DNA from: Candidatus Bathyarchaeia archaeon
GTDB lineage: Archaea > Thermoproteota > Bathyarchaeia > TCS64
DNA length: 64,000 bases
Reading direction: 5' to 3'
NCBI GenBank assembly: GCA_050014495.1
Contig: JBEKDF010000014.1
Span: forward strand, 30,218 to 94,217
A model generated the notes under the pieces. The model had not been told where the DNA came from, searched no databases, and worked only from the letters and a program-made list of their open reading frames with translations. The position numbers and the translations under genes were made by a program. This document shows positions 50,844 through 58,833 of this stretch, in pieces. Numbering within the stretch: the first letter of the stretch is position 1; each line of letters begins with the position of its first letter.

Positions 50844-51146
50844 TTACACCCTCTCTAATTTGAAAACAACGGGTCTTAGGCCATCGGTGCAACATGAGAT
50901 CATCGATCCTTTCTTCTTTATCCAGGGGAAGTCTCCTCCCATGGCTAGATGGACTACGTCCCTTTGAATATCTGCCCAAGCCCAGCTGCAGAAACCCTCG
51001 GGCATAGCCATTCCCTTTGAGAGGTATTCCTTTCCCTCAAGCATTACATTGCATGTTGGCTGCATCTCCACATCAGCATATTCCTTGAATATCTCGTTCG
51101 TGGGGAGCTTCTTCGCGACAGTGATGCGGACATCTGAGAACTTCAT
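50844..51146 (-). CDS. TIGR04076-family cysteine-rich protein
   Basis: PEGFCSWAW and SCCTDGLRPVVFKLER motifs. Confidence 0.85.
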   Translation of the reverse strand: MKFSDVRITVAKKLPTNEIFKEYADVEMQPTCNVMLEGKEYLSKGMAMPEGFCSWAWADIQRDVVHLAMGGDFPWIKKKGSMISCCTDGLRPVVFKLERV

Positions 51147-51251
51147 TTTTAGTCGAGTAAACCGTAGTAGGATCGACATATCAAGATGTTGTATTCACTA
51201 ATTCCAGCGCGCTTTCAATCGTTGGCTCAATATTTCAATTAAAAAAAGATC

Positions 51252-51287
51252 TTACCTAGGTAATATCGAGTATATCAAGGTAGTAAT
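51252..51287 (+). promoter_or_regulatory. Repeated operator, copy 1 (TTACCTAGGTAATATC)
   Basis: 12-bp palindrome with a conserved flank; similar to sites at 54792, 57343 and 57745. Confidence 0.65.
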
Positions 51288-51359
51288 GTAGCCACGGAGG
51301 ACCCATATCCAAATCAATTATTCTTCAAATTGCGCGCACGCACGCAAGGTGTAATAAAA

Positions 51360-52640
51360 ATGGAAAAGTTAGGAGTTAAAAAATCTGGTGTGTTAGCGGT
51401 CCTGTTGATTGTACTATTCGTTACCTCGGTTTTCTCGGTGTTTTCTGTAACTACGAATGCTGCCCTGTTCAACCGATACGATACCGTTAAGATAGGGGTA
51501 ATAGCGCCGATAGATGATTATCTGGACCCCGTCACTGCCCTCTATAAGACAATCGTTGAAAACGACATCAACGCGTATGTCGCCAAACTACCCGTTTCCA
51601 GGTTTGTCCTACCGGTCAAGTTTGATTTCGTAGTAGTAGGCGGTGGAGATGGCACACCTGGAAAGTTCTATGAAAAAGTTGTGATGCTCCATAAGATGGG
51701 TATTGACCTCATCATTGGCGGCTGGTTCTCATCCCAAATAGGTCAGGATACACTCGCTTACCTTAAGAGGAACAATATGGTGATGATAAGCCCTAGTTCC
51801 AATGCCCCATCTTTAGCGAAGGTCGATAACCTATTCAGACTACTCCCGGATGCCAGTATCGAAGGCACAATCGTTGCAGCGATGTTCGCGAAACTAGGTT
51901 TGACAACCGCTATTGTGCTTGAACGTAATGATGCCTGGGGAAATGGGGTATACGGAACGTTCTCCCCTTCATTTCCAGTCACCAATAGATTCACTTATAC
52001 GTATACTCCAGACGATACAGCTAGTTTTGCTACTGCTCTAGGGCTTGCTGAGACAAAAGCTAGTAGTCTATCTGACATATCTCATGTAGGGGTCTTCCTT
52101 ATCGCAATCGACACCGATTGTGCTCCAGAGCTCAACCGTGGTGACTTTGCCACTGCATATCCAACTCTTAAGGGGCTACCTTGGTTCGGTGCCGATGGAA
52201 CAGCATTTTCAAGTAATTTCAATGGAAACAATGTCGGTGAACTAAAAATACTTAGCCCTAATCCTGCAACACCCCACAACACGAAGTTCGACGACATGGC
52301 CACAAGATATTATCCAATTTTAGGAACAATGGACTACTCCGGAGGGTGCAACATAGATGCTGGCTGGATACTCGCCCAGGCTGTGATCGAGACAAGGTCA
52401 ACTGTCTTCTTGAAGTCTCCGGGGGCCACCGATGTAATCAAGGTACTGAGCGACGACTGCTCACGTTACTTCGGATACAGTGGCTGGTGCCAACTGGACA
52501 AGAACGGTGATAGAGTTAGTGGCAACTGGGATATCGTGGGATACGGGTTTGATGCGTCTAATAAATTAGTTATCTTGCAGTATGGCTCTTACGACGCATA
52601 CTCTGGGGTAAGTTGGATTGCAACGCCAGGCTGGCCATAA
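51360..52640 (+). CDS. Branched-chain amino acid ABC substrate-binding-like protein (orphan)
   Basis: Signal peptide; IIGGWFSS, ISPSSNAPSL..DNLFRL.P and G...LDKNGDR type I periplasmic-binding motifs. Confidence 0.8.
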   Translation: MEKLGVKKSGVLAVLLIVLFVTSVFSVFSVTTNAALFNRYDTVKIGVIAPIDDYLDPVTALYKTIVENDINAYVAKLPVSRFVLPVKFDFVVVGGGDGTPGKFYEKVVMLHKMGIDLIIGGWFSSQIGQDTLAYLKRNNMVMISPSSNAPSLAKVDNLFRLLPDASIEGTIVAAMFAKLGLTTAIVLERNDAWGNGVYGTFSPSFPVTNRFTYTYTPDDTASFATALGLAETKASSLSDISHVGVFLIAIDTDCAPELNRGDFATAYPTLKGLPWFGADGTAFSSNFNGNNVGELKILSPNPATPHNTKFDDMATRYYPILGTMDYSGGCNIDAGWILAQAVIETRSTVFLKSPGATDVIKVLSDDCSRYFGYSGWCQLDKNGDRVSGNWDIVGYGFDASNKLVILQYGSYDAYSGVSWIATPGWP

Positions 52641-52809
52641 ATTACCTCATTTTTTTTAATTCAAGTTTTCAATGGATCTTTTGCTCGTACGATGGTTCCT
52701 ATAATCGCATAAATAATGAAAATATCTTCAACACTTTTTATAAAACTGTGATATTGATGATTAACTCATTATATATTTAAACATGGTTCATATTTGCTAA
52801 TCGATTCAG

Positions 52810-53250
52810 GTGGAACCTATTAGAAGCGATCGCAGGAGAGGCTTGAGCCTTATCGTCTCATCGCTTCTAATGATCTTCGTAGCAGTTGCGTGCTCAGTTT
52901 TGACCTACTCCTGGGTCATCAACATGATCGGGTTTCAGTCAGCGCGAGCCCAAACGGAGATCCGGGTTGAACAGGTTACGTGGCTTGACCAAAGTAACTT
53001 CGCAGTCTCGGTCAGAGATATGGGGGCGGTGTCAGTGACTCTGGAATCGATTTCCGTTAAGAAGAGTCAAGTTGATTCTAGTCCAGAGTTGATACCATTA
53101 AACACATCAATCTCTTCGGGGTCAATCAACGAGTTGCATATACATCTTTCAACCACAGCCCTCGAAGATAACACGTCGTATTCTATAAGAGTCACAACGA
53201 ATACTGGCTTCTACTACGAATACACATCGTTTACAGGAATGATTCACTAA
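52810..53250 (+). CDS. Archaeal type IV pilin-like protein
   Basis: Class III signal RRRG|LSLIVSSLLMIFVAV..LTYSW; C-terminal IRVTTNTG. Confidence 0.78.
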   Translation: MEPIRSDRRRGLSLIVSSLLMIFVAVACSVLTYSWVINMIGFQSARAQTEIRVEQVTWLDQSNFAVSVRDMGAVSVTLESISVKKSQVDSSPELIPLNTSISSGSINELHIHLSTTALEDNTSYSIRVTTNTGFYYEYTSFTGMIH

Positions 53251-53572
53251 ATAGCGAGCAATTTCTTAGACTTTTAGTTCGAACTTATAATCAGCAAGGC
53301 TCTTAAGCTCCGGAGAGAAGCGAGTTTTATTTGGGGGGTGGAAATAGATCAGGACTATGGGTAACACCGAAAGGCTACATCACCTTGTTTACGTCGTTGG
53401 GGTCGCAAGAGACCCCAATTATATAACAAAATAGCCAAATTTGTATGGCATCTCAAAAGTCCTAGAGGTATTACTTGGGCGTGCACGCCCTTTTCGCGTA
53501 CTGATTAGCATAATAAGTACGTAAATCAATAATTTTAATTATTAGTAAAATATCATTAATAATTGATCACAT

Positions 53573-54016
53573 TTGCCTATTTTTCAAGGTAAAGGTAAAA
53601 TAGAAATACAGCTCCCAAAAACATCTTTCGCCCCACGAGAAACGGTCGAGGGAACCGTAACGATGTTATTAAATGAACCCGTCAAAGCAAAAGGGGTAAT
53701 AGTTTCACTATCCCGTCAGGAACAAAGAGAAACTTATAGTGGAGGAAAAAGGACAACAACATCCTATACCCATGTCTATGATTCGTCGAATCTCGATGGT
53801 GAAAAGGAGTACCCAGCCAATCAGAGGTTGGAATACCCCTTCAAGTTGGTAGGTCCAGTATTTAACGCGCCTTTTGACCCTGTATCCTCGTTGTTTAAAG
53901 CCATAACCAGGGACAAGTCACCGCCTTCAATGAAGTTTAGAGTCGATGCTAAACTCGATATTAGCCATGGGATAGACGTCAATAATAATGTAGAGATAAG
54001 GATTTTATATCAATAA
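53573..54016 (+). CDS. Arrestin-N/SpoOM-like beta-sandwich protein
   Basis: IEIQLPKTSFAPRETVEGTV.M.L..PVKAKG..V.L pattern; YPFKL and VDAKLDI motifs. Confidence 0.55.
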   Translation: MPIFQGKGKIEIQLPKTSFAPRETVEGTVTMLLNEPVKAKGVIVSLSRQEQRETYSGGKRTTTSYTHVYDSSNLDGEKEYPANQRLEYPFKLVGPVFNAPFDPVSSLFKAITRDKSPPSMKFRVDAKLDISHGIDVNNNVEIRILYQ

Positions 54017-54167
54017 ATCGACGCATGTCTAACTTACTAAATAAATATCGCATAAATTATATATCTTCAACTTTTACTAAGTAATTGTTAATTGATTTAT
54101 GGAGAGAGGTAGATACGGTGTAAGCGATGGTTGAAGGTGATGAAGAATCAGAATAATTGCTGAATTA

Positions 54168-54755
54168 ATGTTCATGAGGAATGGGATGAGATCAAGCCTC
54201 AAGGAGAGCTATAATTCCATTAGCAAAATCTCCGAATCAATTGATAATATTAATTTTATTGGGTTATACAGGCCCTGGAATGAGGAATGGAATTGGCTCT
54301 ACCTATTTGAATTGACAGAGCTTGAGACATGGCATGAGATAGATGCTCACTTCTGTGAAGAGTTTGGGGTGTATGGAGATAATCCGGGTCGATTCATTGT
54401 GAGAATGTATGAAGATGCACGACCATGGCTCACAGAAGAAAATGAATCGTTGCCTCAAAGCATGATAAGGGGGAGGAGGATCTATCACACTCAGTACTAT
54501 CTAAGCAGAAGATTCCAAGATCCACGGATGAGAGAATTTTATAAGGCTCAAGTTGAGCTCTGTGCAAGATTGAAGGGCATCGATTTCCTTAGTCTGTTTC
54601 AACCATGGAACGCAGTATGGAATTGGACCCCAGTCTGGATGATGGACTCGCTTAAAAACTTCATCGAGATGCGAACAGAGTTTATGAGAAGTTTTGGTTT
54701 TCCGGAGGAAATCACAAATCAATTATTAAGGTTCTATGAGAGGCATGAACCCTAA
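54168..54755 (+). CDS. Hypothetical protein with internal duplicated domain
   Basis: FIGLYRPWNEEWNW...RMYE repeated as FLSLFQPWNAVWNW...RFYE. Confidence 0.7.
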   Translation: MFMRNGMRSSLKESYNSISKISESIDNINFIGLYRPWNEEWNWLYLFELTELETWHEIDAHFCEEFGVYGDNPGRFIVRMYEDARPWLTEENESLPQSMIRGRRIYHTQYYLSRRFQDPRMREFYKAQVELCARLKGIDFLSLFQPWNAVWNWTPVWMMDSLKNFIEMRTEFMRSFGFPEEITNQLLRFYERHEP

Positions 54756-54791
54756 ATCAAAATACCATGCATTAAATTTTTCCTAAAAGTA

Positions 54792-54809
54792 TTACCAAGG
54801 TAACATCAA
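54792..54809 (+). promoter_or_regulatory. Repeated operator, copy 2 (TTACCAAGGTAACATC)
   Basis: Near-palindrome matching the 51252 and 57343 sites. Confidence 0.6.
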
Positions 54810-54863
54810 TATTATCTATATATGAACTCCTCCACGGAGACCTTGATTTAAATCAGTTTTGTT

Positions 54864-55205
54864 ATGAAAACGGGTGAAAAAATGGTGTTAATGATAGCTG
54901 TTCACAAGTGGAAGCCCGAGGCAGAGATAACGATAACCAAGGAGATGATCTATGGATTCACACTCCTACTCGAAGGAAAGCAGCCACAGGGAATTAAGCT
55001 ACAATCAACCCACATGAGGAGTGACCATGGAGCATTCTGCGTTTGGGAAGCTCCAAACAGAGAGGAACTTGGGAACTTCTTCAAGAAGTTTGGCCCAACC
55101 CTACTAAAGGCGACGGAGTTCGTCCCGGTCCTATAAGCCTTCCCAGCAACGGTCGAGTACGAGCTCTCGCTGCTCAAGATGATCACAGATTTAGCATCCA
55201 GGTAG
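54864..55205 (+). pseudogene. Small alpha/beta-barrel-like (DUF3303-like) protein with probable premature TAA
   Basis: HKWK...GAFCVWEA; after TAA at 55134 the frame continues AFPATVEYELSLLKMITDLASR*, followed by a T-tract. Confidence 0.55.
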
Positions 55206-55308
55206 GATACGCATCAAGCGCCTCAAAAATAATTAACTAGCATCCTTTCCTTTTTTTCATATAATAAACGAGTAGACTTTTTGCACGAGTAATTGACACT
55301 TTTTAGGG

Positions 55309-57318
55309 TTATTCTGATGGTCGGCGCCTTCGGACTCGCCAGCTAGGGTCCTTTATTTTCAGACCTGAGAGATTGTTGTCCTTTTGGATCTCCTTTGAGA
55401 GATTGATGTTAGAAATCAACTTACCGATGCCTGATACCTGAATCCCAAAGTAGGCTTCACCAACTATCTTGTTACCGGATACTCTAAAATTCTCGGACCC
55501 AATTTGAATACCCGCCTGACCCCCATTAAGGTGTATATTATTATTTTTTATAGAACCGCTGAAAAGTGCTCCAACGTCATCGTCCACGATTTCAGGTCCA
55601 GCCACCGTGATAGCACAGTAATTGGGCTTGGAGAGGCGGATTTCATTTTCTTCAATATCAATGTTGAACCCGGGCCTACGATGCTGGAAAGCACTCTGTG
55701 AAAATATCCCGAAACCAGCCTCAAGTTCTCTAAAAGGATAAGCCCCTTTGATGCTGGATTCTATTACATTATGTTTTATGCTAATATCCGCTTCAGCAAA
55801 GTTGTCGGTTACACTTATTCCTCTGGCACTCATATTTCTAATCCTGTTATTTTCAATCACAGTTTTGCAGGAAGAGTTCAGAATGTTGATCCCTACACCC
55901 AGATAGTATTCATGGTTAATCAGGTCTGGAGGGTATTCGGCGTCCTCGATGTCAATAGACTCCGTTTGCTCTGGTGCATCTTTGGAGATGTATGCGAAGT
56001 CAATGTAATTTCCTTCTATAAATATGCCACCTGGGAAATTCTTGTGTTTCGGATAGCTATCTTTCGGAGAATCTAGCCACACTCCACTTAGAATGTCACC
56101 AAAATTACCGTATTTCCAGCCTCGACCATAACCATTACTAATTGTAATCGCATTATCTCTAAATTTTAGGCTCCTACCGTGATAACCATATATGCATACG
56201 CAGTTGAAGTCTACGAAATGAAGATTCTCAATGACGACATCTGAATTTTCTCCATCTATTTCAAACAATGAGTCGAATTCGGTGAAGGGAAATTTCCAGC
56301 CTTTCTTGTACAAAATGGTGGATGGAAAACTGTTTTCTTTCCCTTCGCCTCGGATTTTAATGCTGTTACTTATCTTAATGGAGGATGTGCCGATGTCAAA
56401 CGTTCCTTTAAGAATTACTTCTTTGAAATTGTTAACTGCATCTTGAAGTGCTTGGGCGTCTGATTGAGTGTCATGTCCCTCAACGACGACTGTTCCCTCC
56501 TTCCGTTTTGTTGTGGCAGCTGTTTGTTGAAGGATGATGGGTGTTTGGGTTCTTGGCACTGATTTTTCCCAGTTCTCTTGGAATAGGTCTCGACACCATT
56601 TTAATGATTTTTCATCGGTTGCGGTGAAGCCGTGGTAATCAAAACCCCCCTCAGGGGTCTGGAACGCGACGGCGCACCTATCCTCAGATATGAAGAGGAA
56701 AAGGTTAGTTGAATCCATGGTTCTCTGTTCTGAGAGTGGCGTATTTCTTGATCTTATTAGCAGAGGTGTATCCTCAATAGATCTTAGGTTCAGGAACGGC
56801 CCTGAGGATATGTTCTTGTTCTCGATGATTCGGAAGTTGACCCCACGTTTTAGAGCGTCGGCGATTGCCTCTAGGGCAGTTAACGGGTACTGGTCGACTT
56901 GAAGCCAAACACTCTTTTGTGATTCTCTGATTGTCTCATCAACGAAGTATAGGAATTCCATTACATTCGTCGTGCAGGTGCTTTTCGATAATTCCCCAAT
57001 TCTTTTCACGAATTCTGGTTGAAGATTATTTATAGTGTGTTTTACGAAGTAGTCTCTGTTCTTTGCTATGAATTGCAGCTCCTCCAATATAATATTGGTC
57101 AACTCACTGTAAGGAGTTTGATGGTAGAATCCTTCCCCATCTTTGAAAACTAGCCCAATTTCCATTAGTCTTGATACGTTACGGCTTATCTCCTGGGTTG
57201 TCAGATTCATTAGCTTGGAGATCTCGGTTATTCTGAGGGGCTTCTCCTTGAGTAGAACAAGGATTCTATGTCTATTTTCGTTTGATATCTCGAATAGTAG
57301 GTCATAGAAGCGTTCCAT
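55309..57318 (-). CDS. ArsR-type wHTH/DUF1724-like transcription regulator fused to a right-handed beta-helix domain
   Basis: N-terminal FEISNENRHRIL...QEISRNVSRL and WCRDLF motifs; C-terminal repeats (IEGNYI, IENNRI, IKHNVI, IEENEI, IKNNNI, VSGNKI). Confidence 0.75.
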   Translation of the reverse strand: MERFYDLLFEISNENRHRILVLLKEKPLRITEISKLMNLTTQEISRNVSRLMEIGLVFKDGEGFYHQTPYSELTNIILEELQFIAKNRDYFVKHTINNLQPEFVKRIGELSKSTCTTNVMEFLYFVDETIRESQKSVWLQVDQYPLTALEAIADALKRGVNFRIIENKNISSGPFLNLRSIEDTPLLIRSRNTPLSEQRTMDSTNLFLFISEDRCAVAFQTPEGGFDYHGFTATDEKSLKWCRDLFQENWEKSVPRTQTPIILQQTAATTKRKEGTVVVEGHDTQSDAQALQDAVNNFKEVILKGTFDIGTSSIKISNSIKIRGEGKENSFPSTILYKKGWKFPFTEFDSLFEIDGENSDVVIENLHFVDFNCVCIYGYHGRSLKFRDNAITISNGYGRGWKYGNFGDILSGVWLDSPKDSYPKHKNFPGGIFIEGNYIDFAYISKDAPEQTESIDIEDAEYPPDLINHEYYLGVGINILNSSCKTVIENNRIRNMSARGISVTDNFAEADISIKHNVIESSIKGAYPFRELEAGFGIFSQSAFQHRRPGFNIDIEENEIRLSKPNYCAITVAGPEIVDDDVGALFSGSIKNNNIHLNGGQAGIQIGSENFRVSGNKIVGEAYFGIQVSGIGKLISNINLSKEIQKDNNLSGLKIKDPSWRVRRRRPSE

Positions 57319-57342
57319 TAGATGAACCTCATAGTAACTATA

Positions 57343-57360
57343 CTACCTAGGTAATATCAA
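57343..57360. promoter_or_regulatory. Repeated operator, copy 3 (CTACCTAGGTAATATC), upstream of the regulator
   Basis: Shares 15 bp with the 51252 site; about 25 bp before the regulator ATG. Confidence 0.65.
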
Positions 57361-57438
57361 TGTTGTCTGAGTAGCAGGGCGTATACGGACACCTTAAGTT
57401 GAAAAATCCAAAGCAGTGAAAAGAGGTGAATTACCGCT

Positions 57439-57705
57439 TTGAGGACATCAGATCGACCAAAGGTTGAACGAGGCGTGTCGGTGGAGATGGGTTCTAAAAT
57501 GTATGTCAATAGCCTCATAGTCTCCGATGATGTTCATGACCGCGTACTCTTTGATGTTAACCTGGGCGAACTAATAGGGTTAACAGTCGCGGAGGGGGGA
57601 GTCTTGGAGGTCAAGGGTACATACGGAGTTTTGAGGGTAGATCTGGCTATTGAGGAGCTTGAGTTAATGTTGTCGAGTATGAAGAAAAACAAAGACACTA
57701 AATAA
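57439..57705 (+). CDS. Conserved hypothetical protein
   Basis: DRVLFD.NLG...VLEVKG.YGVLRVDL; GAGGTGA ribosome site upstream. Confidence 0.7.
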   Translation: MRTSDRPKVERGVSVEMGSKMYVNSLIVSDDVHDRVLFDVNLGELIGLTVAEGGVLEVKGTYGVLRVDLAIEELELMLSSMKKNKDTK

Positions 57706-57744
57706 TTGTGTAAGCTCAGTTCGTTTAAGTAAAAATAATTGTTG

Positions 57745-57762
57745 TTACCTAGATAGCATCGA
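57745..57762 (+). promoter_or_regulatory. Repeated operator, copy 4 (TTACCTAGATAGCATC)
   Basis: Degenerate match to the same consensus, upstream of the SMP-30 gene. Confidence 0.5.
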
Positions 57763-57837
57763 GCTATCCGATGTAGTATCAGCTCCACGCTGATCTTAAC
57801 AGTGGTTCTGTGTATGCATTTTTCGGGGGTTGCTTGT

Positions 57838-58833
57838 TTGAAGAGTAGAAGTGGGTTCATAGTCACTGTTACAATAGTCACTATGTTAGTATCGCTGCTT
57901 GCCAGCGTACCTATAACGGTTCAGGCTAAAAATGTAGTTCCAAAAGTTTCGCCAGTGAAACTCTTTGATGCCTCTAACGGTGAGTTTCCTGAAGGCCTAG
58001 CATTCGATAAAGTCGGGAATATGTACGTTAGCGTCAGCTCACTTGGCCAGATATGGAAGATTAAGCCAGATGGATCAGAGAAACTGCTTCTCACAATTCC
58101 ACCTGCTGGAGGAAGCATGGCTTTTGGATTGGCCCTTGATGCTCATGGAGACGTGTATGCTACATTCGCTTTCAACCCAGACACTCGAGGGGTGTATCGA
58201 ATAGACCACAAAAGTGGTATTGCTCAGCGGATTCCTGGCACAGAGAACATTCTCTGGGCTAATGGTCTATCCTTCGACGATAAGGGTAACCTCTACGTAA
58301 CCGATTCTCAAAGTGGCGCAATCTGGAGAATCAAACCAAATGGGTCAGCGAAGATATGGCTTCAAAACGACCTACTGGAAGGACTGGGTCAGATAACTGG
58401 GTTCCCTCCCGTGGGAGCGAACGGCATAGCCTATTATCATAACAGCCTCTATGTTGCTAACACCGAGAAGGGCCTTCTTGTACGTGTACCAATATTGAAA
58501 GGAGGAATCGCAGGTAAACCAGTAGTCGTCGCAGATGACGCTGAACTGTATGGTTTAGATGGAATTACCTTAGACATTCATGGAAACGTCTACGGCGCTT
58601 TGGTCTTGCAGAGTGAACTCGTTAAGATTGATCTTAAAAATTCAAAAATCACGGTTTTGCTCACCCAGAGCGATGGTATTGACATGCCGGCTAGTCCCGC
58701 TTTCGGCACGGGGAAATGCAATCAACAGACACTCTTCTTCACAAACTTTGCGCTCATGGGCACTAGTCTTGGTGGCTACGGACCAGCAGTACTAAAAATT
58801 TGGATAGGAATCTCTGGGCTTCCGCTTCCATAA
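57838..58833 (+). CDS. Secreted SMP-30/gluconolactonase/LRE beta-propeller protein
   Basis: Signal peptide; PEGLAFD, ANGLSFD, ANGIA and LDGITLD blade motifs. Confidence 0.85.
   Translation: MKSRSGFIVTVTIVTMLVSLLASVPITVQAKNVVPKVSPVKLFDASNGEFPEGLAFDKVGNMYVSVSSLGQIWKIKPDGSEKLLLTIPPAGGSMAFGLALDAHGDVYATFAFNPDTRGVYRIDHKSGIAQRIPGTENILWANGLSFDDKGNLYVTDSQSGAIWRIKPNGSAKIWLQNDLLEGLGQITGFPPVGANGIAYYHNSLYVANTEKGLLVRVPILKGGIAGKPVVVADDAELYGLDGITLDIHGNVYGALVLQSELVKIDLKNSKITVLLTQSDGIDMPASPAFGTGKCNQQTLFFTNFALMGTSLGGYGPAVLKIWIGISGLPLP

Follow-up and report, generated by a model that had tools for sequence, protein, structure and literature searches.

Within a 64,000-nucleotide stretch of DNA from Candidatus Bathyarchaeia archaeon (GCA_050014495.1; contig JBEKDF010000014.1, positions 30,218 to 94,217), referred to here as the window, an 18-bp palindrome occurs four times around the gene of a large putative regulator that combines a helix-turn-helix domain of the winged type (wHTH) with a C-terminal beta-helix. 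The locus raises the question of which protein reads these palindromes and what it does to the genes behind them. A prediction made earlier from the sequence alone (hereafter, the original prediction) took them to be operators of an autoregulated regulon of exported proteins under this regulator. Our analysis makes it probable that the four elements are binding sites of the adjacent regulator, which would activate four genes on the + strand and repress its own divergent gene. Bathyarchaeia are a lineage abundant in sediment and peat, and clear archaeal activator sites are few. No account of the motif, of the regulator family, or of a Bathyarchaeia regulon was found in the literature searched, which did not cover subscription journals and supplements.

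Four tandem double palindromes and their promoters

As originally predicted, the 18-mers start on the + strand at 51252, 54792, 57343, and 57745, and all four match the consensus YTACCWAGRTARYATCRA exactly. When up to three mismatches were allowed, YTACCWAGRTARYATCRA matched the window at 10 places, compared with a mean of 1.34 in shuffled sequences, and none of 100 shuffles reached 10. Four of these matches are the sites, three are the same palindromes read on the reverse strand, and three are background. Across the 3,108,400-bp (3.1-Mb) genome, these four sites were the only matches at one mismatch or fewer (12 matches at two or fewer).

Because the consensus was derived from the four sites themselves, two less circular tests were applied. 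With leave-one-out 55-bp matrices searched genome-wide, each held-out site ranked straight behind its three training sites, at 27.7-43.2 bits, and the next match did not exceed 18.3 bits; with the 18-mer alone, one held-out site dropped to rank 6. A matrix built from eight sites in other genomes placed the four window sites at ranks 1-4 of 6,205,944 positions, with 33-41 bits against 13.2 bits for the best unrelated place, although the eight training sites had been picked with a window-derived matrix and their selection is not fully independent.

The palindrome predicted as the operator is real, but the motif is larger, consisting of a 40-bp tandem double palindrome followed by a fixed block resembling a B recognition element (BRE) and TATA box. 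Two abutting 20-bp palindromes (-3 to +36; unit GATR-YTAC-N4-GTAR-YATC) contain 12-bp boxes, YTAC-N4-GTAR, at positions 1-12 and 21-32, flanked by YATC/RATR. The second box had been noticed as a weaker half-match about 20 bp on; a second element does exist there, but it is a 12-bp palindromic box exactly 20 bp downstream rather than a half. Behind the boxes, NYACG is found at +41 to +45 and a TATA-like YTTWA at +51. The four copies are alike without gaps over ~60 bp, with ungapped conservation extending to ~+57.

All four sites face + strand genes, with 90-108 bp between the site start and the start codon. Site 1 (51248..51287, +; boxes 51252-51263 and 51272-51283; CCACG 51292-51296) lies 108 bp upstream of the ATG of a substrate-binding protein (SBP) gene (51360..52640, +), whose product scores above the cut-off for ANF_receptor and below it for Peripla_BP_6. 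Site 2 (54788..54827, +; boxes 54792-54803 and 54812-54823; CCACG 54832-54836) precedes by 90 bp the ATG of a gene for an 84-aa DUF3303-like protein (54882..55136, +; Pfam E-value 0.0023, under the curated cut-off). Site 3 (57339..57378, +; ATACG 57383-57387) lies inside the divergent promoter shared by the regulator and an unannotated 88-aa protein, here called s88, whose gene (57439..57705, +) has a TTG start 96 bp from the site. Site 4 (57741..57780, +; boxes 57745-57756 and 57765-57776; CCACG 57785-57789) precedes by 93 bp the TTG start (ATG in relatives) of a gene for an SMP-30/gluconolactonase-like beta-propeller (57838..58833, +). All four genes are predicted targets. Three of them, with their distances, had been listed in the original prediction, which missed the s88 gene at 57439. 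It had also placed the 57343 site correctly at ~25 bp from the regulator start (57318) and assigned it to the regulator, whereas this site also, and mainly, faces s88. The description of the targets as exported proteins holds for two of the four: by eye, the SBP and the SMP-30-like protein have signal-peptide-like N-termini, and the DUF3303-like and 88-aa proteins look cytoplasmic.

The promoter block was examined with a matrix trained on 49 tRNA upstream regions of the same genome (consensus SGGWAA-NN-YTTWWA) and applied to 21 sites of unambiguous orientation, drawn from the window and from 10 further loci (the other four of 25 rows, whose orientation is ambiguous, were excluded). The mean TATA score over these sites, which are mostly orthologous and not independent, had a single peak at +51, and the best match within 100 bp fell at +49 to +51 in 18/21. 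The BRE score was below 0 in 20/21, compared with a median of +3.8 for the tRNA set, which was also the training set. In the window, the predicted TATA boxes are CTTAAGT (57393-57399) for s88 at site 3 and CTTAACA (57795-57801) at site 4. At +51, site 2 carries a weak CTTGATT, where orthologues read CTTATTT; TTTAAAT at +56 was rejected as its TATA box since it is not conserved in G075 or L086. The corresponding position of site 1 (+51, ~51302) is degenerate. In the opposite direction, the central spacer of site 3 (57355-57362; CATTGATA on the - strand) is the predicted TATA-like box of the regulator, at -44 from its start.

Since the BRE/TATA-like block stands at a fixed place behind the double palindrome, the arrangement points to activation of the + strand genes, with self-repression limited to 57343, where the central spacer coincides with the TATA-like box of the regulator and occupancy would repress it. 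A regulator oligomer would cover each 20-bp unit, and the pairing of units would permit cooperative binding. From a position just upstream of a poor BRE, the regulator could recruit or stabilize TFB/TBP, and the same occupancy at 57343 would mask its own TATA-like box and close a negative feedback loop. The beta-helix is the likely effector-sensing part; its ligand may be a small solute dealt with by either the SBP or the SMP-30-like enzyme. Published counterparts exist for parts of this scheme. TFB-RF1 exemplifies activators that bind a palindrome placed immediately upstream of a weak BRE (PMC5937170), the TrmBL2 tetramer spans ~2 turns of DNA and TrmB-type proteins oligomerize along DNA (PMC4877046), TrmBL1/Tgr activate when their motif lies upstream of BRE/TATA and repress when it overlaps (PMC4158304), and FilR1 binds its own promoter (PMC3991700).

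The regulator and the conservation of its probable sites

The regulator (55309..57318, -; 669 aa) is the likely binder of the sites. It consists of an ArsR/HVO_A0261-like wHTH (~residues 6-70), a FilR1_middle/TrmBL2-like middle domain (~residues 125-255), and a C-terminal right-handed beta-helix. Residues 1-255 matched HTH_5 with 23.1 bits against a cut-off of 22, which identifies an ArsR-related wHTH; HVO_A0261_N was matched by 48/48 homologues at an E-value of 0.001 and fell below the cut-off in the regulator itself. The middle region gave only PLDc_2 (E-value 0.028) in the Pfam scan. FilR1_middle (PF08350) was found in 24/48 homologues (best E-value 2e-10), and a profile of residues 125-255 matched the TrmBL2 chains 5bqt/5box/5bpd with an E-value of 6.7e-9. 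The C-terminus matched Beta_helix (PF13229; 33.2 bits, cut-off 25.9). A single-sequence AlphaFold model of the regulator had a mean pLDDT (predicted local distance difference test score) of 35.8 and was not used. Homologues with E-values of 1e-60 or better occur in 20/401 genomes of the class, namely its own, 18 of the 70 others of its family, and 1 of 330 outside the family.

Three known systems resemble this module in part. FilR1 of Methanosaeta harundinacea, composed of a wHTH, DUF1724/PF08350, and a receiver (REC) domain (PMC5847659), modulates target promoters besides binding its own (PMC3991700, PMC5847659). The regulator resembles it in having an ArsR-related wHTH first and then a middle domain that may be FilR1_middle, as judged from the homologues, although the regulator itself had no PF08350 match at an E-value of 0.001. 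It differs in ending in a beta-helix instead of a receiver domain, with no REC match at its C-terminus, and in having a predicted regulon that is small and local, with no histidine kinase noted among the open reading frames (ORFs) listed around it. With the TrmB family of the Thermococcales (TrmB, TrmBL1, and TrmBL2), it shares an HTH, a long helix, a TrmBL2-like domain, and an extra C-terminal domain, and the TAC...GTA-type palindromic boxes recall TACT-N3-AGTA of TrmB. Unlike TrmB, the regulator scores below the cut-off for the TrmB DNA-binding domain PF01978 (16.9 against 25.6 bits; 4/48 homologues match at an E-value of 0.001), has no match to the sugar effector-binding domain TrmB_C and a beta-helix in its place, and is predicted to read a 40-bp tandem double palindrome in front of targets that are not a sugar ABC operon. 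The comparison with TFB-RF1 (PF1088) of Pyrococcus furiosus is drawn on promoter layout, not on protein sequence: its palindrome keeps a conserved spacing upstream of a weak BRE plus TATA box, and its small regulon was identified through footprinting among relatives (PMC5937170). The present promoters have the same features, a palindrome at a fixed distance from BRE/TATA and a weak BRE, but the TFB-RF1 motif is TCTG-N5-CAGA, and the present regulator, a much larger protein, is transcribed divergently from its main predicted target. The module would thus work like a local activator of the TrmB/TFB-RF1 type with autorepression, outside FilR1 proper (no REC) and outside Pfam TrmB (sub-cut-off).

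Conservation of the motif upstream of regulator orthologues, a condition set in the original prediction, was examined by footprinting over 55 different N-termini of regulators taken from genomes and metagenomes, and was seen in close homologues. A site of at least 18 bits was found upstream of 9/55, the regulator and eight close homologues, always starting 54-57 bp upstream. All nine belong to the 13 rows whose HTH identity is 64% or higher and cluster in one part of the regulator tree (from which two partial rows are absent); in the other 42 rows, which are more distant, the score never exceeded 10.8 bits. The idea of an autoregulated regulon is thereby retained as a local regulon. The symmetry of the site persists in homologues whose identity is as low as 55% over the N-terminal region and 48% over the full length. 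Family-wide, an 8-bp YATTRATA spacer stands ~44 bp ahead of the regulator start, often as a plain TATA box in distant clades. A significant dyad (P ≤ 0.05) was present in 13/54 regulator upstream regions, 11 of them centered at -37 to -41; in other clades, the dyad keeps its position with different bases, for example, TTTC-N4-GAAA.

Co-occurrence of motif and regulator, another proposed check, was also observed. A composite pattern matched 13/401 genomes; at two mismatches or fewer, it was confined to G000, G075, G009, and G015, each match being within ~2.5 kb of a regulator homologue at least 49% identical, and the remaining nine genomes had single three-mismatch matches against 10 control matches. 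A strict pattern searched over 185,579 genomes found one locus, the G075 module, adjoining a regulator homologue. Both patterns were designed with the sites of these four genomes already known, a circularity that belongs with the adverse points given below. Compared with G075, site 54792 is more conserved than its surroundings (54/61 positions identical; flanks 13/30 and 7/20), whereas the flanks at 57343 and the downstream flank at 57745 are conserved as much as the sites. The whole module (55309-58833) has ~80% DNA identity to its counterpart on contig C29 of G075 (locus L054), a genome of the same family and a different genus. The occurrence of this identity in another genus and in another chromosomal context suggests lateral transfer.

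The mechanism as such is already a known archaeal kind. What the locus adds is an operator, a promoter geometry, and a list of targets that can be put to the test, for a family of regulators found largely within one Bathyarchaeia family; the boxes of these regulators, varying by clade around a fixed TATA spacer, offer a ready set for studying wHTH specificity and the evolution of TFB recruitment.

Other candidate readers and other explanations

Several observations weigh against activation by the adjacent regulator. Four of the 13 closest regulator rows lack an upstream site, and in 71 genomes of the family, the bare 18-mer at one mismatch was at background outside G000 and G075 (14 matches vs 10 in controls). 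The TATA box at +51 is clear at only two of the four window sites (57343 and 57745), and those at 51252 and 54792 score 0.0 and 0.4. Positions +41 to +52 look like a third, degenerate box, whose occupancy could cause repression. Co-variation between recognition helix and boxes was weak: T/S-Q-E accompanies YTTC boxes in 4/5 rows, with L088 a clear exception, and this line was dropped for too few independent cases. Of two paralogues in the genome, on contigs C69 and C34, the latter has a different recognition helix, but the C69 protein, 48% identical to the regulator, has a near-identical one (TTQEISRNLSRL vs TTQEISRNVSRL) and is a possible alternative reader; no site was found near its gene. 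A strict symmetric pattern had no match in G016 (92% complete), which carries a C69-type paralogue, and none in G015, so that the zero in G016 is uninformative on the paralogue. Finally, a site precedes 11/12 s88 genes in the clade and tracks the s88 promoter better than that of the regulator, and the congruent trees of s88 and the regulator cannot tell the two proteins apart as reader.

If the third block were occupied, the same regulator and sites could constitute a plain repressor, spreading cooperatively onto +41 to +52, which overlaps BRE/TATA, and shutting out TFB/TBP as long as no effector is bound. Indeed, the NYAC-N4-NNNN block at +41 keeps the 20-bp register of boxes 1 and 2 and fits a box in some loci (CTACGTCCGTAT in L063), and the TrmB-type proteins, which oligomerize along DNA (PMC4877046), can act as repressors or activators (PMC4158304). 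Nevertheless, the strong boxes stop 8 bp short of the BRE position, the third block mostly has C at position 2 and has G at position 5 in 20/21 sites, unlike boxes 1 and 2, and a promoter under repression alone would hardly be expected to have the poor BRE seen in 20/21 sites. We therefore regard plain repression as unlikely. That s88, alone or with the regulator, is a sequence-specific reader autoactivating its operon appears less likely again. Its promoter association includes two s88 copies in G015 with upstream sites near a regulator without one, and the s88 family has a conserved basic patch, KSKxHVK. On the other hand, s88 belongs to no Pfam family, and neither a PDB sequence search nor Foldseek linked it to a DNA-binding fold; a genuine wHTH is present in the regulator; and the dyad spacer overlies the TATA-like box of the regulator across clades.

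Explanations without a dedicated regulatory protein fare worse. A recently duplicated promoter fragment without specific binding protein, or an RNA element, would account for the ungapped likeness over ~60 bp in four copies. This is very improbable, as homologues preserve the symmetry, other clades do so with different bases, site 54792 is more conserved than its own flanks, the element lies upstream of the predicted transcription start, and Rfam gave no match near any site (an Rfam miRNA-family match inside the regulator gene, 25 vs 57 bits, was taken as chance). We give the least credence to site-specific recombination, in which loxP/dif-like 12-8-12 elements would shuffle cassettes. The elements do have 12-8-12 inverted symmetry with copies in direct orientation, they lie in a low-GC island (51-59 kb; GC 0.38-0.45) between tRNA-Phe and tRNA-Ala genes, and the gene behind s88 varies among genomes. 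But the downstream TATA-like box and the distance to the start codon are both fixed, tyrosine recombinase (PF00589) is absent from contig C14 with its 13 genome matches all on other contigs, G075 synteny runs through the sites on both sides, and none of 11 joints in four related metagenome assemblies fell inside a site, a weak test with patchy coverage. Binding by the adjacent regulator, with activation of the four + strand genes, is thus retained as the favored interpretation.

The s88 protein and neighboring features

The s88 gene is divergent from the regulator in most loci. Its family comprises 485 proteins, of which the 120 listed carry no precomputed Pfam domain; a listed member that bears the name of a Promethearchaeota archaeon indicates a homologue in Asgard. 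The predicted structure has six strands and one helix (pLDDT 84) and gave no Foldseek match in the PDB at an E-value of 0.001; PDB sequence and Pfam searches were without match, and the ESM Atlas gave no usable match. The gene behind s88 encodes an SMP-30-like protein, an SBP, a carboxypeptidase-regulatory/lectin protein, or unannotated secreted-looking proteins, depending on the genome. We raise, as a rather unlikely proposal, that the regulator and s88 form a portable two-protein switch of Bathyarchaeia, in which s88 would be a co-activator/anti-activator or DNA reader, the exported partners would be swappable, and the 12-bp boxes would be rewritten in each clade. If true, such boxes around a fixed TATA spacer would be a natural specificity code for archaeal activators.

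A gene for an unannotated 195-aa protein (54168..54755, +) accompanies the regulator in many loci and has no site of its own in the window; its Atlas look-alikes are DUF6616/DUF3303-type clusters, which serve as leads only. At locus L063 (G015, contig C10, 40000-56000), the module is expanded, with at least four copies of the 195-aa gene, two s88 genes, and up to four degenerate sites, one of which precedes a 104-114-aa ORF without Pfam match. In G075, a fourth strong palindrome (L054, 1946-1977) lies between two divergent genes and has no counterpart in the window.

A TIGR04076 gene (50847-51146, -) is divergent from site 1. Because in L107 (203-1013) two TIGR04076-like genes lie behind a site whose NYACG and TATA are in register, this family may be a fifth member of the regulon. 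A second common upstream motif (ATCGCATAAAT...ATATCTTCAAC..TTTT) is located at ~52705-52740 and 54047-54078, preceding an UpsA-like pilin gene (52810) and the 195-aa gene (54168), and is possibly another local operator or a duplicated promoter. GCGCGC-type words are found at 51207, 51332, 53479, and 59809, and also upstream of L002, L006, L013, L019, and L021; they repeat in the AT-rich intergenic DNA of islands, close to gene starts.

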